From an uncultured Candidatus Saccharibacteria bacterium (GTDB lineage Bacteria; Patescibacteriota; Saccharimonadia; Saccharimonadales; JAGQNJ01), in assembly GCA_964491925.1 (NCBI GenBank), contig CAZBGZ010000001.1, positions 257,621 through 321,620 of the forward strand: 64,000 bases of DNA, written 5' to 3'. The position numbers and the translations under genes were made by a program. Below the pieces are notes generated by a model that saw only the letters and a list, made by a program, of their open reading frames with translations, was not told where the DNA came from and did no database searches. Below, piece by piece: positions 38,109 through 53,364 of this stretch; position 1 is the stretch's first letter; every line of letters starts with the position of its first letter.

Positions 38109-38288
38109 CTAATCTTTCCTTTTTGTTGTCCGCTTTTTAACGAACTCCTCAATAGCTTGTTCACTTATTCGATATCCACGACCAAGTTTTACTGCCTCTA
38201 ATTCGCCATTTTTTATATAGGTGAGAACGCTTTGCCAATGGACCTGTAAACGCTCAGCAACCTCTGTAACTGTTAGATACTTTTCCAT
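38109..38288 (-). CDS. Excisionase-family HTH DNA-binding protein (Xis/AlpA-like)
   Basis: 59 aa ORF not in the supplied track, found by translating the reverse strand: MEKYLTVTEVAERLQVHWQSVLTYIKNGELEAVKLGRGYRISEQAIEEFVKKRTTKRKD. Its TAG stop abuts the ATG of the serine recombinase. Confidence 0.6.
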   Translation of the reverse strand: MEKYLTVTEVAERLQVHWQSVLTYIKNGELEAVKLGRGYRISEQAIEEFVKKRTTKRKD

Positions 38289-38469
38289 AATTCATCCTTT
38301 CGTTACTATAAATAATTATAAACCATTATAAATAATAATACTACGGTTATGTTTGTTGCGCAAAGAACATATCAAACAAATAATCAAATACCTCATCAAC
38401 TGCATCCGCAGAGGCGTCTGGGCTAAGCCGATACTTAATCACTGGTTTAACAACTTTGCGCGGCATAAC

Positions 38470-38862
38470 TTACAGCTGTTCCTTCTTAAAAATTTGTTCC
38501 TCGACCATACCCTTATAGCGGCTTGATCGGTACCTGAGACCGTGACAATGCCTACAGGCTATTAGTGACACCTGTATATAAAGTTTTGCCACGCGGGTCT
38601 TACAGGCAGGGCAAACAAACCAATACCGTTGTCCGCCGTGTCCAGTAGACGTTGTTACTAAGTTAACTTGCATATCACCGATGTAAACTGGCTCCTGGAT
38701 GAGACTTTCTTCAAACTGTGTGCGAAGCGACTTTACAACCTCATCAACGCTAATTGAGTTGACGGCGTCACTTACTGGAGAGTTTCCGTAATCATTGCCC
38801 GACATTGTTTTGCCCCTCGGACTTATCTTGAGTCGTTGAGTTGATTTGTTGGTTCTGGGCAA
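38470..38862 (-). CDS. Hypothetical zinc-ribbon protein (mobile element)
   Basis: CPACKTRVAKL...CRHCHGL Cys4-type zinc ribbon in a 130 aa ORF. Confidence 0.4.
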   Translation of the reverse strand: MPRTNKSTQRLKISPRGKTMSGNDYGNSPVSDAVNSISVDEVVKSLRTQFEESLIQEPVYIGDMQVNLVTTSTGHGGQRYWFVCPACKTRVAKLYIQVSLIACRHCHGLRYRSSRYKGMVEEQIFKKEQL

Positions 38863-39439
38863 CGAAGGCGTTGTTAGCTTTAAAAGACACCTTTAGTGCC
38901 GGCTGCTTAAAGTGTTTAAGGGTATTTATAGCTGATAGATATTGCCTAGCACATCGGTCCACTTCTTTACTCAGAACAGAGTAATAACCGTTCTTCTCAC
39001 TACTTAGAAAGTCTATCCGGGTGATTGAATTGAGTTTGTAGCCATACTCGATCATCCGGCAATACGCCCAACCGGCTGTTTGTGCCAACATCTTTTCTGA
39101 AGCGGTCTTACATTCATATTCAGCTATGAGCTGATCGGTAACTTCGATTAAGAAGGTTCTGTATTTTTTGGTATCAAGTGTCTCAGCTAAAAGGTAGTGG
39201 TTTTCCAATGCGACTATAGCTGAAGCTTGCTCTAGCTTCTTGTTAAGATCATCAACCAATGCCTTTTTCTTAGCTGGGCTGCTTGCTTCGTACTCATTCC
39301 ACATATCAGCTGATTTTTTCAGCAGGGCAGCGGGGTCAATCTCAACTTCAACATTCTTCAGCATCCGCTTAACTTCATCGGGAGTGAACTCTTTAGTTAA
39401 TTTCTTTCCATTCTTTTTACTAGGTTTGTTATTGCTCAT
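38792..39439 (-). CDS. Hypothetical protein (mobile element)
   Basis: 215 aa. Overlaps adjacent ORFs in a typical compact phage/ICE gene arrangement. Confidence 0.4.
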   Translation of the reverse strand: MSNNKPSKKNGKKLTKEFTPDEVKRMLKNVEVEIDPAALLKKSADMWNEYEASSPAKKKALVDDLNKKLEQASAIVALENHYLLAETLDTKKYRTFLIEVTDQLIAEYECKTASEKMLAQTAGWAYCRMIEYGYKLNSITRIDFLSSEKNGYYSVLSKEVDRCARQYLSAINTLKHFKQPALKVSFKANNAFVAQNQQINSTTQDKSEGQNNVGQ

Positions 39440-39803
39440 ATTTCACCTCAATCCCGTAGTCATCATTCAGGTCGATGCCACTTAATGATCGTGGTCCAAT
39501 GCGAAGCGTGATATGAACAAGCTTTCTATCCCTTAGCATCTGTAGTAGATCCGGTGTGACCATATGGCGTGCATAGTCTAAGAACTGTTGCTGCATTTCC
39601 TCGGCATCATCGTACATAATGCAGCTTGAAGTATCCGTACAGCAGCTAGGTGCTTCTACATCTATGTGAACCCAAGAGAAGTGTTGTGGCTGATCCATCT
39701 CATCGTCATAGTGTTTCCCGTGCTGTTGACCTTGGTTTTTATCTGAAGCTTCGCTGTTCTTCTCTAAAACATCTATAGCTTGATCTATTGCATCGTGACT
39801 CAT
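39429..39803 (-). CDS. Hypothetical acidic protein (mobile element)
   Basis: 124 aa ORF with overlapping start and stop with its neighbours. Confidence 0.4.
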   Translation of the reverse strand: MSHDAIDQAIDVLEKNSEASDKNQGQQHGKHYDDEMDQPQHFSWVHIDVEAPSCCTDTSSCIMYDDAEEMQQQFLDYARHMVTPDLLQMLRDRKLVHITLRIGPRSLSGIDLNDDYGIEVKYEQ

Positions 39804-39806
39804 AAC

Positions 39807-40016
39807 TTAATCCCTTCGAATTTTGACGCGAACGGCAACTTCGTCGTAGACAGGCTTTTTATTCGGACAGCTGTCATAGCACGTTTTACAAACAGTTTTC
39901 TTGTTATAACGTTTCTTGGGGCAGAATACGCATTTGTCACCGAAAACTGCTTTGTGTAGTCCTTTACAAAAATCACCGTAAGTATCTATTCTTTTACACT
40001 TAGTATTCATAATCAT
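39807..40016 (-). CDS. Small Cys-rich zinc-finger protein (mobile element)
   Basis: 69 aa with eight Cys arranged in CxxC-like pairs. Confidence 0.4.
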   Translation of the reverse strand: MIMNTKCKRIDTYGDFCKGLHKAVFGDKCVFCPKKRYNKKTVCKTCYDSCPNKKPVYDEVAVRVKIRRD

Positions 40017-40059
40017 TTCTCCTCATTTAATCTATATAGCTTGTTTAGGGGTTGGCTTG

Positions 40060-41436
40060 TTAGGTCATAGCGTCCTCCTTCCACAGTGTCAGATTTTCTT
40101 TATTGGTTATTGACGCATCTGCATTGCGGATCGCCTTACATTCGTCACTCAGAAACCAATCAAAGCTACTGTCCAATTTCATAATCTTTTCAGGTTCGCC
40201 AACTCGTCCTTGGCTCTCTTGGCTGATAGTGCAAAGACCAAGTATTTTGAGCGACTCCATTTCTTTTAATGCAGTCGGCTTAGAACAGTTAAGAATCGCC
40301 TCAACTTCCGCAGTGCAGATTTCACCATCTAGTTCGAGTAATGCGCGGAAAAGACGAGTTCTGACCGTGGGAGCGCTATCTATGGCTAGCTCAATTGCTA
40401 GGCGCACATCATCCTTCGTCAGCTGTGTTCTTCCGTTAACCAAAGCGTGTCCTCGGCATAGGTTGTAAAAAAGTTGGTTAATACGGTCCGGCTTTTCAAC
40501 AGTCGGGGTAGTATAGCTGTACTCTGTGCCGTCTTCGCCTCGATCTCTCCAAAGATTAATTACACCCCGTAGACAAGCTAGGAGACGGGCGCAACGCGCA
40601 ATAATAAGCTTAAGGTCGCGCTCATCTTGGGCGTTATCCCAATCAAGCCCCTCAGGGTATTTAGACCAGAGCGTTTCAAGTAGATGTTTGGTTACGGTTT
40701 TACAGGCTTTTTCTTTGGTCTTATAGGCTGTAGAGCCAAGCTGTTCGGCAAGTTCGTCCTCAGACTTGTCTTTGGAGTTCATATTTAGGAAGAACAGCCT
40801 TGACCCAAGGTTGCCCATCATTTTCCATACCCGAGGTGGAATCGGTGTAGAAGCCGCCAGTACCATAAAAAGGTACTCGCCAACGTACTGACGTTGTCCG
40901 TGGATGCCGCTATCGGTGTTGAAGCCTTCGCCGTCAAGTACGCGAGTTAAAATTCCTAGGCACTCATTTAAGTCGTCATCACGCTTTGAAAACAAGGTTG
41001 CTAAGTCTCTGATCAGGAACAGTTTGTATTGTAGCCGCGGTAGTAAATCCACTTCCCTGAGCTTTTCTTTTTTGACATTGGCGGCATTTGAAACAAACGA
41101 AGCTGGCGTAAACTTATCTGTTGCGTATGTAAGCCCCTCGATCTCAGAGAAAAAGTTGATAGTGATGGTTTTACCTGCTGAAGGGACATCAACTAACACC
41201 AGAGCAAAGGGATTTGTAACATCTTTGATGAGGATTTGTGCAATAATCGACAAGCCAATTTCAGCAGCAAACAGTAGGTCGGGGAAGTTGTCATTTATAA
41301 CGCCTCGCCATTCACTGAATGAGATAGTTTCATCTGGTGTTGGGACCGCTAAAATACGGGGTGCGCTATCAAGGCTAACTGTTTCTACAGTATTTTGTTG
41401 TTCTTCATTTTCATTATCATTTTGCTTCATTGTCAT
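40060..41436 (-). CDS. P-loop NTPase, putative replication/primase-helicase-type protein of the mobile element
   Basis: Walker A LVDVPSAGKTITINFF near residue 90 and a downstream acidic Walker B-like DLLP. The size and position next to regulatory genes suggest a replication initiator or VirE/D5-like protein. Weak assignment. Confidence 0.3.
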   Translation of the reverse strand: MTMKQNDNENEEQQNTVETVSLDSAPRILAVPTPDETISFSEWRGVINDNFPDLLFAAEIGLSIIAQILIKDVTNPFALVLVDVPSAGKTITINFFSEIEGLTYATDKFTPASFVSNAANVKKEKLREVDLLPRLQYKLFLIRDLATLFSKRDDDLNECLGILTRVLDGEGFNTDSGIHGQRQYVGEYLFMVLAASTPIPPRVWKMMGNLGSRLFFLNMNSKDKSEDELAEQLGSTAYKTKEKACKTVTKHLLETLWSKYPEGLDWDNAQDERDLKLIIARCARLLACLRGVINLWRDRGEDGTEYSYTTPTVEKPDRINQLFYNLCRGHALVNGRTQLTKDDVRLAIELAIDSAPTVRTRLFRALLELDGEICTAEVEAILNCSKPTALKEMESLKILGLCTISQESQGRVGEPEKIMKLDSSFDWFLSDECKAIRNADASITNKENLTLWKEDAMT

Positions 41437-41441
41437 AGTCG

Positions 41442-41684
41442 TTACCTTGAATAAATCCTGTTCTTCATTAACTTGATGTTGTTAAAGTAGCTGAGTGGCT
41501 CAACGGATAATTCCTTCTGCCAGTAAGCTCGTACGGTATCCTCTAACTTGTCTTCTCTGCGAAAGACAAACTTCACTCTGCTAGGGTTATTTCTGTCTAG
41601 GGAGTGAAGGCGAAAACCGAGTGTTACAATGGTGGTACACAGCCCAAGGTCCGTTGTCTCAAAGTATTGATCGTCATCGTTCAT
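41442..41684 (-). CDS. Hypothetical small protein (mobile element)
   Basis: 80 aa ORF. Confidence 0.3.
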   Translation of the reverse strand: MNDDDQYFETTDLGLCTTIVTLGFRLHSLDRNNPSRVKFVFRREDKLEDTVRAYWQKELSVEPLSYFNNIKLMKNRIYSR

Positions 41685-41756
41685 TTAATTTCTCCATAGT
41701 GTTCTCACTTGTAATAAGCCAAAGAAGCCCAGGACATTGGAATTAACGGGGGTAAC

Positions 41757-41779
41757 TTAAAAAGCCCGGTGTTCCGGGC
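41757..41779 (-). terminator. Rho-independent terminator (minus strand)
   Basis: On the minus strand the sequence reads AAGCCCGG-AACA-CCGGGCTTTTT, i.e. an 8-bp GC-rich stem, a 4-nt loop and a T5 run. It sits just downstream of the 41803..43248 gene. Confidence 0.6.
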
Positions 41780-41802
41780 TTATGGGGTAATAAAAAAGTT
41801 AA

Positions 41803-43248
41803 CTACGCGAAGCGTTGTCTCAGTTCAACAGTTCTCGGACTATTATTTTGTTCCAGGATGGTAGGGATGGTCTTTACTTGCTCAGTAGTATAATAACGGA
41901 TTGTTTTTATGCGCCGAGGTACTAAAATGCCTCTCGCATCCCATCGCTTAAGTGTTTTGGTGCTAATCCCTATAACATTAGCAACTTGGGATACGGTATA
42001 AAGATCATCTCTCTGATGGCGTTGTGCCATCTGTTTCTCAGCTTTTATTTTATTCAATTCAGTAACTATTCCTTCTCGGTATGGAACAAGAAATGCCGTT
42101 GCTTTTGAGCTGCGTAGTTTCGAGTAGAACGAAGTTTTAATGGCTTCCAATTCACCGGACCTAATCCAGTTTCGCAGTGTCTGGTCAGATATGCCAACTT
42201 GCCGAGCAATAGTACCCAGGAACAGATATTCTTTATTGTTCTTCTCGTCGATATAGACGTTAAATTCAACCCATTCGGATGCAGCTTTATTGTCGTAAAT
42301 GAGGATGTACTGTGCCATTAAGTGATGCACCAGACTATAAAAGACCGTCTGAGCTGCTTTTAATCCCCAACCCATACTTTTGTGTTCATTTTCCCTTAAG
42401 ATCTCTAGGCAAGTAGTTTGGATAATATGCTCGAACTCATCCTCGGTTGGCTCACGACCCTGTAATCGTTCAAGCCTATAATATTCACGTCCAAGCTTCC
42501 ACCACATCTTAGCTAATTGATATGACGCTATGGAGTCGCCTTCAGACGCTTTTACGACTAGATAGAAGTTGCTTTTTGATAGTAGCTTAAAAAAGTCTGC
42601 AAGAGGCTGGAATATTTTGCCGAAGTCAATATGACCAAAAACTGTACGTGTGAATTTGCTGATCTGCTCGACGCATTGTTTTAGGAAGTTGGTGATTGGC
42701 GGCGGTTTAAAATTGGCAAACTTTGATATGAATGTCTGTACTAATGGAGCGATACGGCTGGTTATCCCTGACCCAATTTTTTTGAAGATGCTAGAGAAGG
42801 AGGGAAGAGAATGTCTCAATGCCTCGAACATTTTTTGGATCTTCTCACCAAGCTGACGTATTGTTTCAAGCATCGGCTCCATTGTTCGAGCGATGCTCTT
42901 GTGAGCCTCTGCCATTTGTCGAGCAAGTTGAAGAGCGGGTTGTGTAGCTTGAAATGCCACGCCAACGCTCTTAAAGACTCGATTGATATTACTTTGAAAG
43001 CCAAGCGCCTTTGCTAGGTTACCCTGAACCGAACTAGTTGCAAAAGCTCCGCTCGTTCTCAGGCGTTCACTCAGAATTTCCTGGACATCTTTTTGCTGTT
43101 TTGTTGCTTGTTCACGCGCACGTTTAACAATAGTTAGCTCAACAGTTTTAGGCTCTACTTCAGTTTTCTTTTCTGTAGGGGCATCTAAATCAAGATCATA
43201 TTTTGTCTGACCTTGATTTACATTCTCATTTTTCCCCTCGTTTGACAC
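41803..43248 (-). CDS. Hypothetical protein with two C-terminal MerR-type HTH motifs and an N-terminal coiled-coil region
   Basis: GTIARQVGISDQTLRNWIRSGEL and VSQVANVIGISTKTLKRWDARGIL are both MerR/excisionase-type HTH. Confidence 0.45.
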   Translation of the reverse strand: MSNEGKNENVNQGQTKYDLDLDAPTEKKTEVEPKTVELTIVKRAREQATKQQKDVQEILSERLRTSGAFATSSVQGNLAKALGFQSNINRVFKSVGVAFQATQPALQLARQMAEAHKSIARTMEPMLETIRQLGEKIQKMFEALRHSLPSFSSIFKKIGSGITSRIAPLVQTFISKFANFKPPPITNFLKQCVEQISKFTRTVFGHIDFGKIFQPLADFFKLLSKSNFYLVVKASEGDSIASYQLAKMWWKLGREYYRLERLQGREPTEDEFEHIIQTTCLEILRENEHKSMGWGLKAAQTVFYSLVHHLMAQYILIYDNKAASEWVEFNVYIDEKNNKEYLFLGTIARQVGISDQTLRNWIRSGELEAIKTSFYSKLRSSKATAFLVPYREGIVTELNKIKAEKQMAQRHQRDDLYTVSQVANVIGISTKTLKRWDARGILVPRRIKTIRYYTTEQVKTIPTILEQNNSPRTVELRQRFA

Positions 43249-43482
43249 TGTTAAGCCTCATTTTCATATAATCTTTGTACCTACTTATAATTATATCAAA
43301 ACTAGTACGTCTACTGATTACCTCATCGATAAATCAACACTAACGCAATATATTACTAGGCAAAAAATGCTTGGTCATTTTGCTCCCGAAAAAATTCGGC
43401 ATTGATACAGCGGAGTCTTATTTCTGAAGATTAACAGGGGTAGCCCCCCGCTATGACTTTTCAAATCTGTATAAAACGAGTT

Positions 43483-43710
43483 TTAAAGACCCTTAAAAAG
43501 GTCGCTTATATTCACTTTTAGTGTTTTTGCGATTTTGCTAAGTGTACTAAGTCGCGCCCATCTTTTACCGGTTTCTATATAGGCGATTGCAACTACGCTC
43601 ATATTGATGCGTTCTGCGAGTTCTTGTTGCGTAACTCCGCGACTCTTGCGAACCTCAGCAACCCTTCTGCCAAAGGCTTTCATTAACTTCTGCTCACGTG
43701 TACCTGTCAT
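43483..43710 (-). CDS. XRE-family (Cro/CI-type) HTH transcriptional regulator
   Basis: VTQQELAERINMSVVAIAYIETGKRWARLSTLSKIAKTL is a canonical XRE HTH. 75 aa. Confidence 0.8.
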   Translation of the reverse strand: MTGTREQKLMKAFGRRVAEVRKSRGVTQQELAERINMSVVAIAYIETGKRWARLSTLSKIAKTLKVNISDLFKGL

Positions 43711-43736
43711 ACACTAAGCGTAGAAATAATAAACAG

Positions 43737-43772
43737 ATAGTTACATAAACTAACTGTTTATTTTGTTGATAA
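43737..43772. promoter_or_regulatory. Candidate operator: inverted repeat AATAAACAG-N18-CTGTTTATT in the divergent XRE / DUF4352 intergenic region
   Basis: 9-bp perfect inverted arms read directly from the sequence, located between the divergently transcribed repressor and the DUF4352-like gene. Confidence 0.4.
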
Positions 43773-43818
43773 TATATGATAAATTCTTATAGAGATAACT
43801 TAAACAAGGAGTTTATAA

Positions 43819-44382
43819 GTGAATTGGTTCAAAAAACACAAGATAATAACGGTAATTCTAGCGTTGGTAGTAGTTGGGGGCATTATAGGTGCAGCGGGTG
43901 GCGGTTCTAGCACCACCTCAAACCAGAGCAACAGTGGAAATAATAATGCGTCTGAGAAGACCGAAGAAAAAGCAACAACGGCTAAAATTGGTGAACCAGC
44001 ACGCGACGGTAAGTTTGAATTTACAGTAACCAGCATTAAATGTGGTGAGAAATCAGTAGGAGACCAATACTTAAACGAAAAGGCGCAAGGTGAGTTTTGC
44101 CGTCTTAGTCTTAGCATTAAGAACATAGGTAATGAGGCTCAAAGCCTCTTATCAAGCGACCAAAAGCTATTAAACGCCGAGGGTCAACAGTTTGCTGCCG
44201 ATGATACAGCTACCATCTACGCATCCTCAGGCAATTCAGGTAGCACTTGGTTTGACCAAATAAATCCTGGTAACAGCGTAAAAGGTGATATTTTGTTTGA
44301 CGTACCTGCCGGTGCAAAGATTACCACTGCTGAACTGCACGATAGTTCTTTCTCAGGTGGCGTAAAAGTAAACCTCCAGTAG
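43819..44382 (+). CDS. DUF4352-like membrane-anchored/secreted protein
   Basis: N-terminal TM/signal anchor, a low-complexity Ser/Asn/Gly linker and a beta-rich domain (KFEFTVTSIKCGEK...GEFCRLSLSIKNIGNEAQSL...DILFDVP) typical of DUF4352 proteins often found in prophage regions. Confidence 0.5.
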   Translation: MNWFKKHKIITVILALVVVGGIIGAAGGGSSTTSNQSNSGNNNASEKTEEKATTAKIGEPARDGKFEFTVTSIKCGEKSVGDQYLNEKAQGEFCRLSLSIKNIGNEAQSLLSSDQKLLNAEGQQFAADDTATIYASSGNSGSTWFDQINPGNSVKGDILFDVPAGAKITTAELHDSSFSGGVKVNLQ

Positions 44383-44532
44383 TTAGAAGCCCGCGATTAA
44401 ATTGTTTTTACAAGTTTAGATTATCAGCTCGCCCAACAGAGAGCGAGAGATTGACACGCACCTTAAAATATGATAGTATGTAGCTAGTTAGATAACAAAA
44501 ATAAAAACCTAACGCTACAATAAGAAATTACT

Positions 44533-46512
44533 ATGCAAAGTCCAGGAAGCTCATTTCTACACGATCGTAACCCACAGATGCACGCATCTGATGAAGTTGA
44601 GGCTGTAGTGGGCTATTTACGTCAGGGTGGCGAGTCTATTCCTAACGAGCCTGCTGATAAAATCTCGGCTCACCTGGGATTTTTGGCTAACCGTGAGTAC
44701 GTAAACGACGGCATATTAACCGGAGATCAGGGCAGCATAGATCGACAGATTGATGCCCACGTTATTAGTGCATCTGATGTGCCGGAGGGATACTTTGAAC
44801 TACAACGCCGAATTGCAAGGGAGCAAGGACATGGTGACATTCAAATAACCTCTGAAATGCGTCATCAAATGGTTGAGGCGGTGCAGGCTGATCAACGTGC
44901 TGGACTTGGTAAATGGGTTGAATATCTCGGCGGTGACGACGGTGGATACCCTGATTGGTTTAAGAGTTACACTTGGACATCAGTTACTAAGCTCGGGACA
45001 TTCGATAAAGAAAAAAACGAGTTTCAGAAGCGTAGTCGTGGCACGACAGCGCCTTACCCCGAGCTGAACCGTGAAGCGTTAGCTTACGTTTATGATGTGT
45101 TAAACAAATCACGGATACAGGGTGAGCAGGTCAATGGCAGGGCTAACGATGCCGAACTTCAGAAGCTCCTTAAAAGTGGTAATTTTGGTAAACTCTACGC
45201 TCACGCTGTATTGGAAGTCACACCTGATAGTCCAGAGTTAAGAAAAGACACAAGAGGTTCGTGGACTAAGTTCAATCAGACTGACGATCCACGTACAGCC
45301 CGTAGGCTTTCCGGTTCACTGCAAGGACACGGTACAGGTTGGTGTACGGCTGGTGAAAGCACAGCAACTATGCAATTAAGGGGTGGCGACTTTTTTGTGT
45401 ACTACACACGCGATGAAGACAGCAAAGACACCGTTCCACGGGTGGCTATACGAATGGAGCAGGGCGAGGTTGCCGAGGTTCGTGGTGTAAATGCTGCTCA
45501 AGAACTTGAACCAGAAATGGCAGATATCACGGCTGAACGGCTTAAAGACTTACCTGGTGGTGAAGAGTACATACGCAAGGCAGAGGATATGAAGCGCTTA
45601 ACTGCTATTGAAAAAAGAATTACAGCTAATCCTGACGCCAATCTAAGCACTGAGGAACTACGCTTTCTGTATGAGCTAGACCACGAAATACAAGGCTTTG
45701 GCTATGAAGACGACCCACGCATAGGCGAGATTAGACAATTACGCGGTGATAGAGATAAGCCCGAACTTGCTCGTATATTGCCTGAAAGTATACGTGAGCA
45801 GTTAAGTAGTGCGTTTGCGGCGTACAAGACAGTGGCAGAGCAATTAGGTGGCAAGCAACGCCTATTTCGTAAGGGCGAAACAGCACTAACTCCAAGTGAG
45901 CTTGAAAAACTGTTTGCTTCAAAAGACAGAGAATGGCAAGTAAACGGTACGTACGACTACCTAGTAGAGCAACTGATAGAAAACGGTGCTCGTTTTAACC
46001 TGGTGGCTACGCCTAACATTGAGGCTAGCGAAGCCCAAATCGTTGCGTTAGCAGAAAACTTTGGTAAAGATCAGCCATACGCAACCTACGTATATGATGA
46101 ACTATATCGCAAGGGTCATTACAGTGGGCGAGAGTGGTCAGGCAATAATGGAGATGCGCCTGTTCGCTTGAGCCTCATACCAAGCCGTTATGACAGTGGG
46201 ATTAGTAATAAGCCGGTAGAAACACAAGTACGCTTACTGCGTGAACGTCAAGCTCAGCGACCAGAACTAGCAGCACGAGTACCAAGTCTGCTTGATGCGG
46301 TAACTTACTGGTACACATTGCGTGCGCAAGGGGATAAACTCGACGACAGTAGTGCTTTTGATAAAACCTACATTAGGCACTTTGATTTAGAGCCGCAAAC
46401 GGTCGACAGGTGGCTGGTCGTGCCGTACTCCTACGTGAACGACGATGGTAAGCCGTACCTGAACTACTCGGATGCCGAGAATGAGAATGATGCTCGGCTC
46501 GCGGTGGGGTAA
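44533..46512 (+). CDS. DGR target (variable) protein; VR occupies its last 38 codons
   Basis: 659 aa ORF whose 3' end (46398-46510) is a near-copy of the template repeat. It differs at positions that are adenines in the template. No signal peptide. Confidence 0.75.
   Translation: MQSPGSSFLHDRNPQMHASDEVEAVVGYLRQGGESIPNEPADKISAHLGFLANREYVNDGILTGDQGSIDRQIDAHVISASDVPEGYFELQRRIAREQGHGDIQITSEMRHQMVEAVQADQRAGLGKWVEYLGGDDGGYPDWFKSYTWTSVTKLGTFDKEKNEFQKRSRGTTAPYPELNREALAYVYDVLNKSRIQGEQVNGRANDAELQKLLKSGNFGKLYAHAVLEVTPDSPELRKDTRGSWTKFNQTDDPRTARRLSGSLQGHGTGWCTAGESTATMQLRGGDFFVYYTRDEDSKDTVPRVAIRMEQGEVAEVRGVNAAQELEPEMADITAERLKDLPGGEEYIRKAEDMKRLTAIEKRITANPDANLSTEELRFLYELDHEIQGFGYEDDPRIGEIRQLRGDRDKPELARILPESIREQLSSAFAAYKTVAEQLGGKQRLFRKGETALTPSELEKLFASKDREWQVNGTYDYLVEQLIENGARFNLVATPNIEASEAQIVALAENFGKDQPYATYVYDELYRKGHYSGREWSGNNGDAPVRLSLIPSRYDSGISNKPVETQVRLLRERQAQRPELAARVPSLLDAVTYWYTLRAQGDKLDDSSAFDKTYIRHFDLEPQTVDRWLVVPYSYVNDDGKPYLNYSDAENENDARLAVG
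46398..46510 (+). repeat. DGR variable repeat (VR)
   Basis: 113-bp match to 46810-46922 with 8 mismatches. Seven of them are A in the TR copy versus G/T here. The eighth lies at the 3' edge, consistent with an IMH/IMH* difference. Confidence 0.8.
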
Positions 46513-46809
46513 AACCTTTAATTTTAGCCCTTTCTTTTCTTCTTTCTCTTTTATCTAACTACCTACGAACAATAGGTTCGGGGTAAGTAGTCCAAAGGCT
46601 AAAGTACCTATCGGTGCCCCGAGTGGATTGTTGCTTACATCTAGCGTGAAAAGACTTTCCGAGCGAAAGCGGATCTTTTTATAGCAGTAAGCACATCAAG
46701 AACCTTTTACACCCCACGGATCTCCAACGATAGCGTCGTAAATGATGCTGAAAAGAAGAGAGGTCCTTATTTTCTGCGGATTATAAGGAACGAGACGTCT
46801 TGGAGAATT

Positions 46810-46922
46810 AACGGTCGACAGGTGGCTGAACGTGCCGAACTCCTACGTGAACAACGATGGTAAGCCGAACCTGAACAACTCGAATGCCGAGAATGAGAAT
46901 GATGCTCGGCTCGCGGTGTGGT
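46810..46922 (+). repeat. DGR template repeat (TR)
   Basis: Intergenic copy of the VR. Translated in the VR frame, it carries AAC (Asn) codons at all six variable codon positions (W L N V P N S Y V N N D G K P N L N N S N A E). Confidence 0.8.
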
Positions 46923-46936
46923 GTATCAGTGTTAGT

Positions 46937-47275
46937 CTAATGCACGCTTTTGAGCCAGCCGCCAATCATTCGGCGTGCTTCGCTCAGGCGTGCTTGGACT
47001 TTTAGTACACTCGTTTCGTTGGCGAGCTTTAGTTCAAGAATGGCTCTAAGATGCAATGAGGTCATTTCGGCAAGAGCGTTTGCCCTAAGGAGGTAACTTG
47101 CTTTCATCGGTTTTGGAGCGTGTTTTGCTAATAGTAGCTGTTCTAGGGTATCTGACCAGCACTTTGCTGCTTGTTCACCGAGTGAATAACGGTATTTCTT
47201 ATCCAACTTAGTATTTAATTCCAGTAATTTTTTGTAAATCTCAAAGGCAATGGTGATGACAGGTAACTCTTCCAT
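46937..47275 (-). CDS. avd: DGR accessory variability determinant (Avd-like four-helix-bundle protein)
   Basis: Starting from the internal Met of the 46937..47413 ORF (MEELPVITIAFEIYKKLLELNTKL...YLLRANALAEMTSLHLRAILELKL...EARRMIGGWLKSV). It parallels the Avd/TIGR02436 pattern (...LYAADAGLAMLRFWLRFL...ILGGWIARV in the Bordetella Avd). Confidence 0.6.
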   Translation of the reverse strand: MEELPVITIAFEIYKKLLELNTKLDKKYRYSLGEQAAKCWSDTLEQLLLAKHAPKPMKASYLLRANALAEMTSLHLRAILELKLANETSVLKVQARLSEARRMIGGWLKSVH

Positions 47276-48221
47276 AGATATCAGTTTAGCAAACGTATGG
47301 CGTTCGTTTGTAGCTTTTCGTAAGGGCAAAAAACCAAGCCGTGTTATTACAGAATTTGAATACGAATTACTTGATAACATCCTCAAATTGACTACTGAAC
47401 TCCAAACTGGCACTTACAGGCACGGTCCATATTCTCATATGATCGTTAATGACAACAAGCGACGAGACATTGCTGTGGCGTCTGTTCGCGATAGAGTTGT
47501 GCATCGATTGCTTTACGATTATTTAGTTACAATCTGGGATAAAACGTTCATTTACGATGCCTGGTCGTGCAGGCAGAACAAAGGTTTGCATAGTGCAATA
47601 GATAGAGCGCAAAAATTTATGCGGCAACATAAAGATGGTTGGCTTTGGCGCGGGGACGTAACAAAGTTATTTGACTCAGTTGACAAGAATACGCTGTTAC
47701 GATTACTGAGACGACGGGTAAGTGACCCGACAGCCTTGTGGCTACTGAGTGAGACGATAGAAAGTTATCATAGCTTTGATAATAACAGAGGTATCCCAAT
47801 CGGCAATCTCACTAGTCAAATCCTAGCAAACATCTACCTAAACGAATTTGATCGTTATATCACGCACAGAATAAAGCCGAATGCGTACCTTCGTTATGGC
47901 GACGATTGGTTATGCTTTATGGACGATAAGGCAAAACTAGAAAACGCACGTAAAAAGGCAGAAGACTTTCTGGGGTGCGAACTTAACCTGGATGTTAATC
48001 CTAATGTAAACCTCATAAATCCTGTGCGTAAAGGGGTGTCGTATCTGGGTGTTGATCTTTGGTCGTCAGGACGAAGACTTGATAAGGACGCACAAAATAA
48101 AATGAAACGAAACTTAAATGTGCGTAACGCAGCAAGTTATAAGGCACTGATGGTTCATAACCAATCGATAAAGCAAATTCGACGCTTTGATTGGATCATT
48201 CAAAGTATTAACGAGCCATAA
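47250..48221 (+). CDS. DGR reverse transcriptase
   Basis: RT motifs include the N-terminal FRKGKKPSRVITEFEYEL...GTYRHGPY, RDRVVHRLL, the DGR-specific IPIGNLTSQILANIYL (IGxxxSQ in place of QGxxxSP) and the catalytic RYGDDWL (YxDD). Confidence 0.85.
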   Translation: MVMTGNSSIDISLANVWRSFVAFRKGKKPSRVITEFEYELLDNILKLTTELQTGTYRHGPYSHMIVNDNKRRDIAVASVRDRVVHRLLYDYLVTIWDKTFIYDAWSCRQNKGLHSAIDRAQKFMRQHKDGWLWRGDVTKLFDSVDKNTLLRLLRRRVSDPTALWLLSETIESYHSFDNNRGIPIGNLTSQILANIYLNEFDRYITHRIKPNAYLRYGDDWLCFMDDKAKLENARKKAEDFLGCELNLDVNPNVNLINPVRKGVSYLGVDLWSSGRRLDKDAQNKMKRNLNVRNAASYKALMVHNQSIKQIRRFDWIIQSINEP

Positions 48222-48405
48222 TCTACTCACCATACCGGTTTTCGACTTAGGTAAGTAGCCGCATTCGTACTACCTAAAACTAAATTGCTTTAGCTTACTT
48301 TACAATGAACTTTGACTAATTGCAAACACCTATGGTATCTTAGGACGAGTATATTTTGTCTTTTCGCGGAGAAAACGGCAAAGGTGGGAGAAAGATGATT
48401 ATTAA

Positions 48406-49275
48406 ATGCTTCACAAGTACGGTTACACCTTTATTGAAATTCCAGTCAATAAAATTCAAAGAGATGTAAATCAGCCACGTCGTGATTTCGGCACAGAAGG
48501 TGACACCAATAGGTTATTACTGTCTATTAAGCAGTACGGTATAGAAAACCCCATCTCAGTTAGTGAGCTAGAAGATGGTCGTTACATTATTATTGATGGT
48601 CACAGGCGTTATATTTGCGCTCAGAAGCTTGGTTATGAGCAAGTTCCTTGTCGGGTGTATCCCAAATTATCAAATGCTGAACTAGAAACACGTAGGTATG
48701 AAATCCAAAACAATCGTCGTTCCTGGAAGCCAATGGAGCGATCCGAAGCCTTAGAAAGAATTAAGGCTGAAAAGGGCTTTTCAAGCAACCGTCAGCTCGC
48801 AGATCACTTAGGTATAACAGAAGCTGTGGTTGCTAATTCGCTCCAACTTCGTAAGCAAAAAATGGATTACATTGAGTTAATGGAGCGTTACGATTTAAGT
48901 GAAAGTTACCGTATCGAATTTGTAAGACTTAAACCGAAACTACGCAAAATCCGTAGTGTGGAAGTGGACGACATAATCATTAATCTTTTTAATCGTATCC
49001 AACACAAGGTTATTAAAAATGCCAAGGAACTACGCAAGCTCGGCAGTATATTCTTGCGGGCAACGGCGAATGAAGAGGAGCTGGCTCGATACTTAGCAGA
49101 TCCCGATATGACGGTCCACGAGCTTGAACAGAGAACCCTACAGTCAGGTTTCTCCTTGCACATTGAGCAACTCATCAAAGGCATTAGCCAGAAGAGAGCC
49201 GAAGGCGTTGCGTTTAGTTCGCAAGAGAAGGCTTTTCTTGATCAACTTAAAAAACTACTAAACGAGGCGCTATAG
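48406..49275 (+). CDS. ParB-like N-terminal (ParB/Srx nuclease) domain protein
   Basis: IIIDGHRRYICAQKLGYEQVPC is the ParB-type GxRR box. 289 aa with a helical C-terminal half. Confidence 0.6.
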   Translation: MLHKYGYTFIEIPVNKIQRDVNQPRRDFGTEGDTNRLLLSIKQYGIENPISVSELEDGRYIIIDGHRRYICAQKLGYEQVPCRVYPKLSNAELETRRYEIQNNRRSWKPMERSEALERIKAEKGFSSNRQLADHLGITEAVVANSLQLRKQKMDYIELMERYDLSESYRIEFVRLKPKLRKIRSVEVDDIIINLFNRIQHKVIKNAKELRKLGSIFLRATANEEELARYLADPDMTVHELEQRTLQSGFSLHIEQLIKGISQKRAEGVAFSSQEKAFLDQLKKLLNEAL

Positions 49276-49282
49276 GTAAAAA

Positions 49283-50629
49283 ATGTTTGGCACGGAGGGT
49301 ATAAAGAAAAAAGCGGTGGCATATTATCGCCACTCAGCAGAAGATAAACAAGAAAACTCTGTCCCTATACAGCGAGACCAGGCTAATGAGTTTGCGGCAA
49401 AGTATGGCATTGAGATAATCCACGAAGAGGCTGATGAAGGTAAAAGTGGTTTATCAGCTGCACGTCCAGGTTTTGAACGACTGTTTGAAGATTGGGTTTT
49501 AAACCCAGATGCTCAGGAGTTTGATTATATACTCGTGTTAGATGTTACGAGGTGGGGGCGTTTTCAGGACCCTGACGAAGCTGCTTATTGGGAGATGCAG
49601 TGTAAGAAAAGAAACAAAAAGGTGATATACATTTCCAGAGGTTTCCCAAAGGAAGAGGAAAAATTGCTGTCTAGCCTTGAAACATCAATCGGTCGGTATA
49701 TGGCTGCTGAATATAGCAGGCAGTTAAGCGATAAGGTGTGGCACGGGAGTATGAAAATTTCTGAGCAGGGATTTTCAGCTGGTGGTACAGCGCCCTATGG
49801 GTATGTGCGCGTGCTATTTGATGAGAACAAGGAGAGGGTCGGCATACTAAAAAAGGGCGAACACAAGGTTATAGCAAATCAACGGGTTACTTTTGAGCCT
49901 GCGAATGATGGCTCGGAGCAAGTAGTAAAGGATATATTCGCAATGTTTGTAAAGCGGGGCATTCCGCCCGAAGACATCGCTAATCAATTAAACGAAAATG
50001 CCGTTGTGTCAGCCACGGGTAAGGTGTGGGATGCGTCTAAGGTTGTTCGCGTCCTGGGTAATGAAACCTACACGGGGACTAAGTTGTATAACAAAACCTG
50101 GAGTCGACTAAAGCAAAGACAACGCAAAAATCCCGTAGAAGAGTGGGTCAGGTGCGAGGATGCTTTTGAAGCGTTGGTTAGCCGTAAAGATTTTGAATTT
50201 GCCCAGGAGCAACTTTACTGGTCTATGCCGTCTCGTTGGAGGCACGGCATACACAAGGTCAACAGAACGCGCCGCTCAATCGAGGATTATGTAGATAAGC
50301 TAGTAGAAAGCTACGAAGATGACAGGCGCTATCAAGTTCGTAAGCGTCTGCCGGTAACGTTCGGGCTAACGTACTATCAAGATGGGGTAGCTAAAAGGTG
50401 TTTCAAGATCACCGAAGAAATGCGTAAACACAGCGAAATTATAGGAGTTAGTGTCAATATGTTTGCAAAAAACAAAATAGATGCAGTGTTTTCGTTGCCA
50501 ACGCATAATTTCGGGATCGGTAATTACTGGGTAGTCAATGATGCAGATAAAAATACACCTGACTACAAGATAGAAGGTGAGGACATCAATACCAAAGTCC
50601 TCAATCTATGCAACAGCATAACCCTCTAG
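49283..50629 (+). CDS. Large serine recombinase (second copy family)
   Basis: Resolvase catalytic domain AVAYYRHSAEDKQENSVPIQRDQ...EADEGKSGLSAARPGFERL...DYILVLDVTRWGR, then a recombinase domain. 448 aa. Confidence 0.8.
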   Translation: MFGTEGIKKKAVAYYRHSAEDKQENSVPIQRDQANEFAAKYGIEIIHEEADEGKSGLSAARPGFERLFEDWVLNPDAQEFDYILVLDVTRWGRFQDPDEAAYWEMQCKKRNKKVIYISRGFPKEEEKLLSSLETSIGRYMAAEYSRQLSDKVWHGSMKISEQGFSAGGTAPYGYVRVLFDENKERVGILKKGEHKVIANQRVTFEPANDGSEQVVKDIFAMFVKRGIPPEDIANQLNENAVVSATGKVWDASKVVRVLGNETYTGTKLYNKTWSRLKQRQRKNPVEEWVRCEDAFEALVSRKDFEFAQEQLYWSMPSRWRHGIHKVNRTRRSIEDYVDKLVESYEDDRRYQVRKRLPVTFGLTYYQDGVAKRCFKITEEMRKHSEIIGVSVNMFAKNKIDAVFSLPTHNFGIGNYWVVNDADKNTPDYKIEGEDINTKVLNLCNSITL

Positions 50630-50641
50630 CTCCTGGGTTTG

Positions 50642-52219
50642 TTAAGAACTACGCTTTTTTAGGGATATAGCTAGTATGGCATTGGTAAGATGATGGATGT
50701 TTATAGGGTTTTGCCACATTACTTTTGTGATTGTAACGTGATGTTCGCGTGGGTATCTATAAGTGTTCTGTTGAATGATTACCTCATCATTAACAGCTAA
50801 CTTATCAAACAGAGCCTTACAAAAATGGCGTCGGATGGCTGGATCTGCATTGATATAAGCCTTGGAAAAATTTAATTCTTTGACCATTTTTAAAGCACGA
50901 GCCTGACGTCCATCAATAATCTTTAATCGTCTGGTTGCCTCCGTAATTACTCCTTGAGCTTGGCGTGTTTCTTCATTAATACGTTTCTGCTCACTCTTGA
51001 ATAGGTCCGCAGAGATAACTTTGTCATAGTACGTTTGGAGTAAATTTTCCTTCTCTGCCTGAAGCCGCACTACCCGCTGAGTTTGAGCTTTGGTATCAGT
51101 TTCAGCGTAGGCTCTTTCACTGCCAAGCTCGTTTTCAATTTGCTCAGATAACTTTTGGCGATCTGAAGCAGATAGGTTTAGGATTTTAAGCTGGTTGATA
51201 ACTTCTTGTTCTATCTTCTGAGCCGGTATGTATGGTTGGTTGCACTGTTGATTTTTACGGTTTAAACACGAATAGTATTCATACTTATGTTTACTGACCA
51301 TATAACATAAGTGCCTATTACACCGACTGCACAGCAACAACCTGGATAGGTAATGGTTGTGGCTGCGATTTTTTCGGCTCAAACAATATCGACTTTCACG
51401 GATAGCTTGACCGGCGGCAAATACAGCAGGTGTTACTAGCGGTTGATGATTACCATTGTACTCAGTACCGCAATACGTTACATAGCCAAGGTAGTAGCGG
51501 TTTTGTAGAAGTTTATTAAGACCACCGTGGCTTATCGGCTCTACCTTTGACCGAGAACGAAGCCTGGTACGCAAACCACGTTTAGATAGTTGGTCTAATA
51601 ACTCTAACTCACTGTAATCACCCGTTGCGTAGCACTCGAAAGCCCAGCGTATAAGTGGCGCTCGTGATTGATCTAGGGCAACCGTATGAACCTCGCGCCT
51701 GTTAACACGCTCCGTCACATTTACGTATCCGATTGGTGCTTGGAAGGGTGTACCTCCTCGCTTGGCTTTTTCAGTTGCTCCTTTCAATGCCTCAGCTGCT
51801 AAGTTTCTGCTATAGAATTCAGCAATAGTTGCCATTATGCCGTGCAGCAACCTACCGGATGGTGTTTCGTCTATATTCTCTGTTACGGAGACAAGCGTCG
51901 CCCCAGCTTTTTTAATCGCTAAACCGATCATTACATCGTCGTGAAGATTACGAGCCAACCGGTCTATTTTGTGGACGATAACGCTCTGGATATTTTGTTT
52001 CTTGTCACATAAGTCGTGTAGCAATCGTTGTAATTCCGGTCTGGATGCTGAACGAGCTGACTCGCCACGATCTGCATACTCCCTTATGCGAGTAGCACCC
52101 AGCTCTTTAGCTTTTCTTCTGCACGCTTCACGTTGTGCAGGTATAGAATAACCCTCTCGCTGATTATTTTTTGTTGCTTGGTCGAGTGTTGAAACTCGTA
52201 AATATATTGCTACCTTCAT
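50642..52219 (-). CDS. Large serine recombinase (third copy) with zinc ribbon
   Basis: VAIYLRVSTLDQATKNN...YADRGESARSASRPELQRLL...VIVHKIDRLARN catalytic domain, a recombinase domain and the zinc ribbon CSRCNRHLCYMVSKHKYEYYSC. 525 aa. Convergent with 49283..50629. Confidence 0.85.
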   Translation of the reverse strand: MKVAIYLRVSTLDQATKNNQREGYSIPAQREACRRKAKELGATRIREYADRGESARSASRPELQRLLHDLCDKKQNIQSVIVHKIDRLARNLHDDVMIGLAIKKAGATLVSVTENIDETPSGRLLHGIMATIAEFYSRNLAAEALKGATEKAKRGGTPFQAPIGYVNVTERVNRREVHTVALDQSRAPLIRWAFECYATGDYSELELLDQLSKRGLRTRLRSRSKVEPISHGGLNKLLQNRYYLGYVTYCGTEYNGNHQPLVTPAVFAAGQAIRESRYCLSRKNRSHNHYLSRLLLCSRCNRHLCYMVSKHKYEYYSCLNRKNQQCNQPYIPAQKIEQEVINQLKILNLSASDRQKLSEQIENELGSERAYAETDTKAQTQRVVRLQAEKENLLQTYYDKVISADLFKSEQKRINEETRQAQGVITEATRRLKIIDGRQARALKMVKELNFSKAYINADPAIRRHFCKALFDKLAVNDEVIIQQNTYRYPREHHVTITKVMWQNPINIHHLTNAILAISLKKRSS

Positions 52220-52356
52220 AGCTGTCCTCCTTTATTGTTTTGTCTTTTTATAATGACCCCTATATAGAGACGGAGCCGTTATTAAGCAGAAGGGGGTTGA
52301 TCTACTTTAGGTTTGTGATATACTAAAAGTTAAAGTTTAAAGTAAAGGTATAAAGT

Positions 52357-53364
52357 ATGATAACTTCAAACTTACAAGTAACACTTCAAAAGCTCACAGA
52401 TAAGAAGGGCCAACTTCAAAAATTGCGTCCATTATCTGCTGATTATCTCAAAAACCTAGCCGAGTGGTTTAAGGTTGAGTTGACCTATAACTCAAACGCT
52501 ATTGAGGGCAACACGCTTAATCGTCGTGAAACCGCACTCGTAATAGAAAAGGGCGTTACAGTTAAGGGCAAAACATTAACTGAACACCTAGAGGCTACCA
52601 ACCACGCCGAAGCAATTGATTACGTTAAAGATTTAGCAGCTAATACTAAACAGCAAGATCTCACCAAGCAAGACGTAATGAACATTCACAAGCTCATTTT
52701 GCAAAAGATTGATGATGAAAACGCAGGAAAGTATCGCAACGTGCCGGTTGCAATAGCTGGTTCTGATGTTGAGCTACCTGATCCACTTAAAGTACCTGAG
52801 TTAATGGAAGAATTTTTTACTTGGCTAAAGAGTAAAAGCGACACACACCCAGTCATTGTAGCTGCCGATGCTCACTACAAACTAGTCCGAATACACCCTT
52901 TTGTAGATGGTAATGGACGAACTGCACGATTGCTTATGAACTTACTTCTTATGCAAGCCAACTATCCCATTACCGTTATTGGCAATGATAAGCGAGAAGA
53001 TTATATCAATGCTCTAGAAAAAGCTCATATGACAGGCGACCTGAATGATTTCTATTCGTTGGTTACTAAAGCTGTAGACAGCTCACTTGATGTGTATCTT
53101 GGTAATAAGAAGCCTAGGGGAGTTAAAGAGGAGCGTCTACTTAAGATTGGCGAACTAGCTCGGGCCAGCGATGTGCCAACTAGTACAATACGTTTCTGGA
53201 CCAATGAGGGTCTGTTAAAAGTAGCTAAAACTACTGAAGGTGGCTACAGATGGTTTAACGAGAGTAGCCTAAAGACAGTTGAAAAAATCAAAGAACTACA
53301 AGCTAAGCGGCTAACGCTTGATGAGATTAAATCTGAAATCAATAAAGCAAATCTGACGTCCTGA
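52357..53364 (+). CDS. Fic-family protein (AMPylase/Doc-type) with C-terminal MerR-type HTH
   Basis: Fic motif HPFVDGNGRTARLLMNLLL. C-terminal IGELARASDVPTSTIRFWTNEGLL...GGYRWF is a MerR-family HTH. Confidence 0.85.
   Translation: MITSNLQVTLQKLTDKKGQLQKLRPLSADYLKNLAEWFKVELTYNSNAIEGNTLNRRETALVIEKGVTVKGKTLTEHLEATNHAEAIDYVKDLAANTKQQDLTKQDVMNIHKLILQKIDDENAGKYRNVPVAIAGSDVELPDPLKVPELMEEFFTWLKSKSDTHPVIVAADAHYKLVRIHPFVDGNGRTARLLMNLLLMQANYPITVIGNDKREDYINALEKAHMTGDLNDFYSLVTKAVDSSLDVYLGNKKPRGVKEERLLKIGELARASDVPTSTIRFWTNEGLLKVAKTTEGGYRWFNESSLKTVEKIKELQAKRLTLDEIKSEINKANLTS

Follow-up and report, generated by a model that had tools for sequence, protein, structure and literature searches.

An Apparently Intact Diversity-Generating Retroelement with a Reversed avd Gene and a Structured Leader in a Saccharibacteria Chromosome

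The Locus and Its Elements

This analysis concerns positions 44533-48221 of a 64,000-nucleotide stretch (hereafter the window) of contig CAZBGZ010000001.1, from an uncultured Candidatus Saccharibacteria bacterium (GCA_964491925.1). An initial annotation, made from the letters of the DNA, had described the region as a complete diversity-generating retroelement (DGR) with a target gene containing a variable repeat (VR), a template repeat (TR), Avd and a reverse transcriptase (RT). Every element of that interpretation was upheld, and the region is almost certainly an intact, chromosomally integrated DGR of the type found in the Candidate Phyla Radiation (CPR). The order in the window is target-VR, leader, TR, reversed avd and RT. 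The principal features, other than those of the leader, are as follows:

44533..46512, + strand: target (variable protein) gene, an open reading frame (ORF) of 659 aa
44533..45760, + strand: conserved N-terminal module of the target (approximately residues 1-410), an uncharacterised Patescibacteria-wide family
45880..46509, + strand: C-terminal domain of the target (residues 450-659), with a predicted fold like that of C-type lectins and the formylglycine-generating enzyme (FGE); its last 37 residues are the VR
46398..46510, + strand: VR, ending in the target stop codon TAA (46510-46512)
46489..46530, + strand: VR end resembling an initiation of mutagenic homing (IMH) site, with a GC-rich core in common with the TR, a G/T difference at 46507 and then the flank TAAAACCTTTAATTTT
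46810..46922, + strand: TR, with 31 adenines in 113 nt
46937..47275, - strand: avd, 112 aa, antisense to the TR and RT, with its 5' end overlapping the RT start
47250..48221, + strand: DGR RT, 323 aa from the first ATG, with GIPIGNLTSQ and RYGDDW

Template and Variable Repeats

A repeat finder returned the VR and TR as the lone long direct repeat in 44000-49000, 113 nt in length and 93% identical, at exactly the coordinates of the initial annotation, and pairwise alignment showed that the homology ends on both sides of the pair. Eight mismatches were found by scripted tabulation. Seven of these lie at TR adenines (A to G three times and A to T four times), as the initial annotation had claimed; given the adenine content of the TR, the binomial probability of at least seven out of eight is approximately 7e-4. 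The eighth, a T in the TR (46919) and a G in the VR (46507), falls four bases from the end of the homology, near the 3' edge where it had been placed before. In the frame of the target ORF, six codons are recoded; the TR encodes Asn at every one of them, whereas the VR encodes V, Y, D, Y, Y and D. The earlier description of six AAC codons holds for the amino acid but not entirely for the codon, as five are AAC and one (residue 647) is AAT.

The GC-rich 3' core is the same in the VR and the TR; the one G/T difference comes after it, and beyond that the flanks diverge. Its 18-nt stretch GATGCTCGGCTCGCGGTG has only two sites in the 64-kb window, the TR and the VR, with none expected by chance. 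Since it occurs nowhere else in the window, the cassette has a single target there. The flank that follows the VR is absent from the TR and was conserved in all related loci in the alignment. By analogy with the Bordetella phage model (PMC5758913), the VR end may serve as the homing signal.

A scan that took one genome per species found relatives in 261 stretches (related loci carry numbers beginning with L). The adenine bias recurs in related cassettes: three of them have 18/19, 18/19 and 23/24 mismatches at TR adenines, and further related loci have 17/17, 24/26, 16/17 and 19/21.

Reverse Transcriptase and Avd

The RT probably starts at 47256, the start called in its relatives. Both boxes named in the initial annotation, IGxxxSQ (IPIGNLTSQ) and YGDD, are present; where group II and retroviral RTs have QGxxxSP, this RT has the DGR-type motif [I/L/V]GxxxSQ. 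When compared with solved chains in the PDB, the RT gave its best match to 8ub7_A (E 3.3e-33, residues 22-289 aligned), whereas retron and group II RT chains gave E values of 2e-16 or weaker, in line with the identity first assigned to the gene. The matched chain, a "Reverse transcriptase" of 328 aa, comes from an entry that also contains an "Avd" chain and that we take to be the Bordetella phage bRT-Avd complex. In the alignment, IPIGNLTSQ lies opposite IPIGSLTSQ and YGDD opposite YMDD. Library searches matched RVT_1 in Pfam (8.6e-17) and phrog_1423 (2.6e-82). By its sequence, the RT is of the DGR type.

The product of the reversed gene matches three Avd families, namely NF033474 DivGenRetAVD of NCBIfam (7e-9, profile positions 3-104 of 104), PF22296 bAvd of Pfam (8e-6) and phrog_3206, "Avd protein of DGR" (1e-7). 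All three matches span the whole length of the 112-aa protein and uphold the earlier proposal of a divergent Avd-like gene. A profile built from 10 Avd orthologues found solved chains weakly (Bbp7, 4dwl, E 0.086; Avd, 8ub7_B, E 0.46). The avd and RT genes overlap head to head by about 20-26 nt. At the C-terminus of Avd there is an invariant GGW (window 46943-46980), which in TR-strand letters reads CCAGCCGCC and can pair with the GC-rich TR end (GCTCG...GCGGTG). Since all positions are invariant, covariation neither supports nor rejects this pairing.

It could be argued that the repeat arose by partial gene duplication or recombination and lies by chance beside the RT of a group II intron, a retron or a defence system. 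The group II RT/maturase model of NCBIfam indeed matches (E 6.5e-41), with 140.6 bits against a cut-off of 300, and there are weak matches to Drt and retron models. However, the mismatches are confined to TR adenines here and in related loci, among solved structures the DGR RT is the closest relative by a wide margin, and an Avd gene is present; neither a maturase/X domain nor intron RNA nor an Rfam match was seen at the locus. Chance duplication is refuted by the adenine bias across independent loci, and its probability is negligible.

The Target Protein and Its Tip

The full-length AlphaFold (AF2) model of the target has a pLDDT of 88.2 and a pTM of 0.70, with a disordered linker at residues 441-449. 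Among the C-type-lectin/FGE folds that the confident C-terminal model matches are three variable proteins of DGRs with solved structures; the comparison also lists intimin, invasin and dozens of C-type-lectin-like domains (CTLDs) from animals. For TvpA (2y3c), TaqVP (5vf4) and Mtd (1yu0), the sequence identity is only 8-12%, and residues 1-440 of the target have no counterpart in them. A C-type-lectin/FGE-like fold is thus the high-confidence prediction for the target C-terminus, as the initial annotation had expected.

Sequence comparison gave no annotation for the target. Neither the whole protein nor four segments of it matched a Pfam, NCBIfam or PHROG family at E values up to 10, and no PDB sequence was matched with the single sequence or with a profile. 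No Pfam FGE-sulfatase or DUF1566 signature was detectable. A Foldseek search of the full-length model against the PDB returned nothing significant, with weak CTLD hints. More than 1000 homologues of the target were found, and every named one belongs to Saccharibacteria/Saccharimonadales. Inspection of the N-terminus revealed no signal peptide, as had been noted before, and no hydrophobic segment. This agrees with what was reported for CPR targets (PMC8144416). The diversified target is most likely a binding protein.

Variation among Relatives

Public protein variants were used as a stand-in for sequencing reads. In four clusters at 90% identity or more, the last 40 residues differ by 17-36% per residue, compared with 0.4-3.6% over the first ~620; per residue, this is a 5- to 85-fold excess of differences in the tail over the body. 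The largest cluster shows 0.38% difference per residue in the body versus 32% in the tail. Relatives that are 95-97% identical overall differ mainly in the tail; in the nearest one (97% identical), 13/621 body residues differ versus 10/38 in the tail.

The distribution of this variation follows the adenines of the TR. Over 101 homologues, the column entropy was 2.87 bits at the 19 VR codons that have a TR adenine in position 1 or 2, compared with 0.90 bits at the other 18 VR codons (Mann-Whitney p 5e-7) and 1.08 bits in the rest of the protein. The fixed scaffold of the VR reads W..VP.S.V...G.P.L..S.A.....ARLAVG. Between locus L001 and the window, the TR shows one base change, whereas many adenine positions distinguish the two VRs, that of L001 differing at 18 adenines. 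A near-invariant TR together with divergent VRs is the mark of a donor that stays constant and a recipient that varies. The tip is hypervariable at the level of both the family and the population.

The N-Terminal Module

Full-length relatives of the target were found only in Saccharibacteria/Saccharimonadia in the 261-stretch scan. Residues 1-~410, by contrast, are 38-48% identical in contigs of Parcu-, Woese-, Magasanik-, Falkow-, Kuenen-, Shapiro-, Kaiser- and Zambryskibacteria. A profile search over 1.84 billion cluster representatives found 2323 clusters (50% identity) at E<=1e-3 and 1308 at E<=1e-30, most of which match profile positions 1-~410 alone, in proteins of 550-1150 aa. Residues that are invariant over a diverse set of the family include W270-C271, which lies within the motif GHGTGWCTAGESTA, D286, R303, R317, D394 and R396. 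Pfam gave no domain in ten long family members and nothing in 37 diverse members. Given the wide spread over phyla, the many clusters and the lack of a Pfam domain, the module therefore represents a large, uncharacterised CPR-wide family that has repeatedly been coupled to variable tips. It most likely performs a function that is common to many Patescibacteria.

Such coupling is seen in at least 11 distant family proteins that own TR/VR pairs with 14-21 adenine mismatches, and nine of these also have an RT that is 33-37% identical to that of the window. The distant loci with pairs of their own are L057, L066, L073, L076, L080, L081-L084 and L086; L056 and L060 possess a TR/VR pair with no RT on the fetched stretch. 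Other distant members carry C-terminal tandem repeats without adenine bias and without an RT. In the non-DGR members L033, L036, L043, L049, L054, L065, L079 and L085, these repeats are ~115-185 nt long.

Some clues to the function of the family were followed. A PcfJ-like domain, suggested by the motif GTGWC...VPRVAIRM...EVRG, gave no match when the segment was searched at E up to 10, nor in the 37 diverse members. Glutaredoxin2_C matches in the non-DGR paralogues are fragments of 20-30 residues within the C-terminal repeats and were regarded as spurious. A resemblance of the middle of the target to GNAT proteins, and a QGHGTG stretch that fits the Q/RxxGxG acetyl-CoA motif, may be taken as no more than leads.

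The Leader RNA

The 297 nt from the target stop codon to the TR contain blocks that are conserved even where the target is only 55-70% identical. The following features were assigned to this stretch:

46564..46570, + strand: possible -10 box of the TR transcript, TACGAAC, with TACAAT or TATAAT at the aligned site in L004 and L014
46578..46809, + strand: structured non-coding leader of ~235 nt, 5' of the TR
46578-46585/46615-46622, + strand: leader helix P1 (RNAalifold)
46626-46638/46687-46697, + strand: leader helix P2 (RNAalifold)
46708..46718, + strand: leader block TACACCCCACG, candidate partner of the TR 3' boundary GTGTGGTGTA (46916-46925)
46732-46749, + strand: leader hairpin P3 (RNAalifold and single-sequence folds)
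46765-46788, + strand: leader hairpin P4, capped by a UGCG tetraloop

In an RNAalifold analysis of 11 loci, the four helices showed compensatory changes in 25 of 39 pairs, and P1, P2 and P3 were confirmed in a set of 19 sequences. Single-sequence folds gave P3 and a P4 with a UGCG-type cap in nearly every locus despite differing stem sequences. For P3 and P4 together, 91.7% of cells are paired, compared with 63.6% after shuffling, and the covariation score is 0.78 versus 0.25 (0/500 shuffles); when the partner was slid by 1-3 columns, the score was at most 0.23. Covariation in the leader is well supported. As G-U pairs are frequent, the structure can be placed on the + (TR) strand.

No Rfam family matched 46480-47300, whether the gathering thresholds were applied or E values up to 1 were allowed, which indicates that the leader is none of the curated motifs associated with RTs, and no description of it was found in Rfam or in the DGR literature cited here. 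A covariance model of P3-P4 found matches only in the Saccharibacteria lineage, including two loci without RT and Avd, and a full-leader nhmmer profile gave the same distribution; the leaders of distant CPR DGRs were not detected with the P3-P4 model. A generic promoter and terminator scan was uninformative and did not pick up the -10 candidate.

A second clade of CPR DGRs (L057, L066, L073, L076, L080-L084, L086), whose targets share the same N-terminal family, has its own conserved leader of ~250 nt behind a TATAAT-like box. Its sequence is unrelated to that of the Saccharibacteria leader, and it is equally structured, several of its hairpins containing CGGCUACGGCU. In this clade, the TR is directly followed by a terminator-like hairpin with a U-run, which lies a little ahead of the 3' end of the reversed avd.

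Pairing of the Leader with the TR

In the Bordetella phage, cis-primed reverse transcription needs a 140-nt spacer 3' of the TR and 20 nt upstream of it; for other DGRs, the inspection by Handa et al. reached only 40 nt upstream of the TR and 100 nt downstream (10.1101/2023.10.23.563531). The inversion of avd leaves little free RNA 3' of the TR at the present locus, and contact between the leader and the TR 3' end was therefore examined. The nine pairs of TACACCCCACG with GTGTGGTGTA were scored in 14 loci: 87.3% of cells are paired versus 78.9% after shuffling, and the covariation score is 0.23 versus 0.084 (0/500 shuffles), with slid controls at most 0.085. Three of the pairs are compensatory (for example ACACC/GGUGU, AUACC/GGUAU and AAUCC/GGAUU), and the centroid of the window's own single-sequence fold contains the same duplex. 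An RNAduplex search for such a duplex in the second clade gave inconsistent sites. In the antisense-avd stretch 3' of the TR, 14 pairs were predicted, nearly all of them invariant and three compensatory. The sequence evidence for the leader-TR pairing is moderate, as it is for the orientation, which would put the 3' side of the leader block beside the GC-rich TR end in the geometry of a cis primer.

This arrangement resembles the msr-msd RNA of retrons, in which structured RNA also stands 5' of the reverse-transcribed segment, with possible pairing beside the template 3' end and a cis primer. The RT of the window is of the DGR clade and not a retron RT; the retron offers a working analogy for the leader rather than a statement of membership.

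It is also conceivable that 46513-46809 is not retroelement RNA at all but has a regulatory role as the 3' untranslated region or terminator of the target, as a promoter region, or as a riboswitch-like leader for the TR and RT. The stretch does separate the end of one gene from the transcription unit that follows, its 5' side has a -10-like hexamer and a pyrimidine-rich tract, and the evidence for pairing with the TR 3' end is moderate. However, the P3-P4 model and nhmmer place the leader next to TRs of this DGR lineage only, the covariation is on the TR strand, and a second CPR DGR clade has an unrelated but equally structured leader of ~250 nt in the same position, where the terminator-like hairpin after the TR leaves little 3' RNA for the functions of the Bordetella spacer (10.1101/2023.10.23.563531). 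A regulatory role is possible, though on balance doubtful.

Proposed Mechanism and Activity

On the DGR interpretation, the + strand would be transcribed from ~46575 through the leader and the TR, these transcript ends being putative. The leader may bind RT-Avd and place the site of priming at the 3' end of the TR. Acting with Avd, the RT would reverse-transcribe the TR and misincorporate opposite template adenines. The cDNA would then replace the VR at the 3' end of the target, directed there by the shared GC-rich end and the VR-specific flank. In this way, up to 19 codons could be recoded on the C-type-lectin-fold domain's ligand-binding face, with the scaffold kept fixed.

Several points weigh against this interpretation. 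The evidence for diversification comes from the protein variants of relatives and not from reads of the source genome. The window VR differs at only 7/31 TR adenines, compared with 18-26 in relatives. Behind the VR, this locus has no GC-rich inverted repeat; such a repeat is present in 34% of DGRs only (PMC5758913). The Avd hidden Markov model scores lie under the curated cut-offs (35.9 vs 80 bits and 26.7 vs 40 bits). The pairing between the leader and the TR 3' end is drawn from three covarying pairs in related sequences, and the single-sequence fold energy of leader plus TR is no better than that of shuffles (z -0.67).

The low count of changed adenines could reflect few rounds of mutagenesis, strong selection or low activity. 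It would also fit a relic, in which the parts of a DGR are still recognisable but no longer diversify in this lineage, so that the VR is frozen. In several Saccharibacteria homologues of full length, a VR-like tail persists although the neighbouring Avd, RT and TR have been lost. L010 (6037-6285) and L015 (6076-6310), one of which is Ca. Chaera renei, retain the full-length target and the leader, with no adenine-biased TR, avd or RT on the fetched stretch, and look like the outcome of decay or deletion of the retroelement that left a frozen VR. Such homologues indicate that loss of the DGR occurs in the target family. In the window, however, none of the three ORFs (target, avd and RT) is interrupted, the RT retains catalytic YGDD and the SQ motif, and the TR is intact and nearly the same as that of L001, whose VR differs at so many adenines; the concentration of differences in the tails of close relatives (95-97% identical) also speaks against a relic. 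It is unlikely that the locus is one, and to judge from its sequence the DGR is likely active in the window genome.

A wider reading joins the leader to the target family. In CPR DGRs with a reversed avd, the ~235-nt 5' leader rather than a 3' spacer might recruit RT-Avd, set the priming site and fold onto the TR 3' boundary (46708-46718 with 46916-46925) in a retron-like topology. The target might in turn belong to a Patescibacteria-wide family (>2000 clusters at 50% identity) of possibly cytoplasmic proteins whose N-terminal module couples a variable lectin tip to a common function. Taken as a whole, this reading is speculative and may well prove wrong.

Relation to Known Retroelements

CPR DGRs were reportedly first surveyed by Paul et al. 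in 2017. One locus related to that of the window, MGCQ01000008 (Saccharibacteria RIFCSPHIGHO2_12_FULL_41_12), is presumably, by its "RIFCS..." name, a groundwater metagenome-assembled genome from the kind of survey that lies behind the CPR DGR studies.

In architecture B3 of Wu et al. (2018, PMC5758913), avd is encoded on the reverse strand within the order TR-(avd)-RT. They reported this layout for 90% of CPR DGRs and found most CPR targets to be unannotated, their VR classes being "unknown". The window shows the TR-(avd)-RT order, the reversed avd and a CPR host. The divergent avd of the initial annotation is therefore correctly oriented but no oddity, as it follows the standard B3 layout of CPR DGRs (PMC5758913). 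According to Roux et al. (2021, PMC8144416), CPR DGRs form a cell-encoded, Patescibacteria-restricted "DGR clade 2", the targets of which have no recognisable membrane or known domains. The host and cellular context of the window are consistent with this clade (PMC8144416), the RT having been typed here by motifs and pairwise matches. The cassette has the gene order, the single adjacent target and the cellular rather than phage-borne setting of CPR B3 DGRs, as well as a target without a recognisable transmembrane or Pfam domain and adenine-specific mutagenesis of AAY codons. It does not differ from them in kind and belongs to an already described class of DGRs.

The DGR of Bordetella phage BPP-1 (mtd-avd-TR-brt) shares with the window an IGxxxSQ RT, an Avd, an AAC-rich TR, a VR at the 3' end of a protein with the C-type-lectin fold, and a GC-rich IMH-like end that is common to VR and TR before the two diverge. 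It differs in several respects. The avd of the window is inverted and lies 3' of the TR, so that the 140-nt spacer of BPP-1, which holds the priming adenosine and an Avd-binding stem-loop (10.1101/2023.10.23.563531), has no free non-coding counterpart here. The window instead has ~235 nt of structured RNA before the TR and no inverted repeat after the VR, and its target is a cellular protein, not a tail fibre.

As a DGR, the locus adds little, since CPR bacteria are already known to be rich in DGRs and the layout is standard. Its use is as a clean and complete model, with many relatives, for two questions raised in the literature. What is added here is the lectin-fold assignment for the VR class, the CPR-wide family of the target N-terminus and the covarying leader RNA. 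As to what CPR DGRs diversify, the analysis points to a lectin-fold tip on a body module that is common to many CPR phyla, with and without DGRs, and provides a defined protein family for work on localisation and binding partners. As to how the RNA is assembled when avd is inverted, the leader, the UNCG-capped hairpin and the candidate duplex of the leader with the TR 3' end are concrete predictions that can be mutated.

Genomic Setting

The flanking genes (PolA, PNPase, RNase J, FtsK, EF-P, YchF and type IV pilus genes) and the names of the homologues identify a Saccharibacteria chromosome, which supports the host suggested at first. The DGR lies within an island of ~17 kb (window 36423-53364, ~36.4-53.4 kb), which also contains regulators of the Xre and MerR types with helix-turn-helix domains. 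The island and its neighbours include:

35390-36463: ychF, left of the island
36423-38108, - strand: large serine recombinase at the left of the island, overlapping the ychF start
43819-44382: DUF4352 protein, in the island
48406-49275: ParB-like protein, in the island
49283-50629, + strand: large serine recombinase, in the island
50642-52219, - strand: large serine recombinase, in the island
52357-53364: Fic-MerR fusion, in the island
56847-57887: type IV pilus gene, PilM
59518-61308: type IV pilus gene, PilB-like ATPase
62437-63654: type IV pilus gene, PilC-like

The setting in an integrated element is supported as well, and the island recurs in L001-L003. The same island has differing right-hand neighbours in L001, L002 and the window. 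In L004-L006, the cassette is found among the housekeeping genes RF-1, FtsX, PolA, TruB, S15 and PNPase. The gene order is conserved in L001-L026. Related contigs carry the same trio of a 655-660-aa target, a 112-aa reversed avd and a 321-aa RT, the orientation and size of avd being kept in all related cassettes. No match to the island or the target was found in phage or plasmid collections, and the contig index contained no exact entry for the window's protein.

Two further proteins of the window may be mentioned. A 1039-aa ORF without a Pfam match (53666-56785) lies directly to the right of the island, just upstream of the type IV pilus genes. A 758-aa protein (5772-8048, - strand) gave weak matches to TrwB/VirD4-type coupling proteins and HerA-like ATPases, and could belong to a separate mobile or DNA-transfer module at a distance from the DGR.

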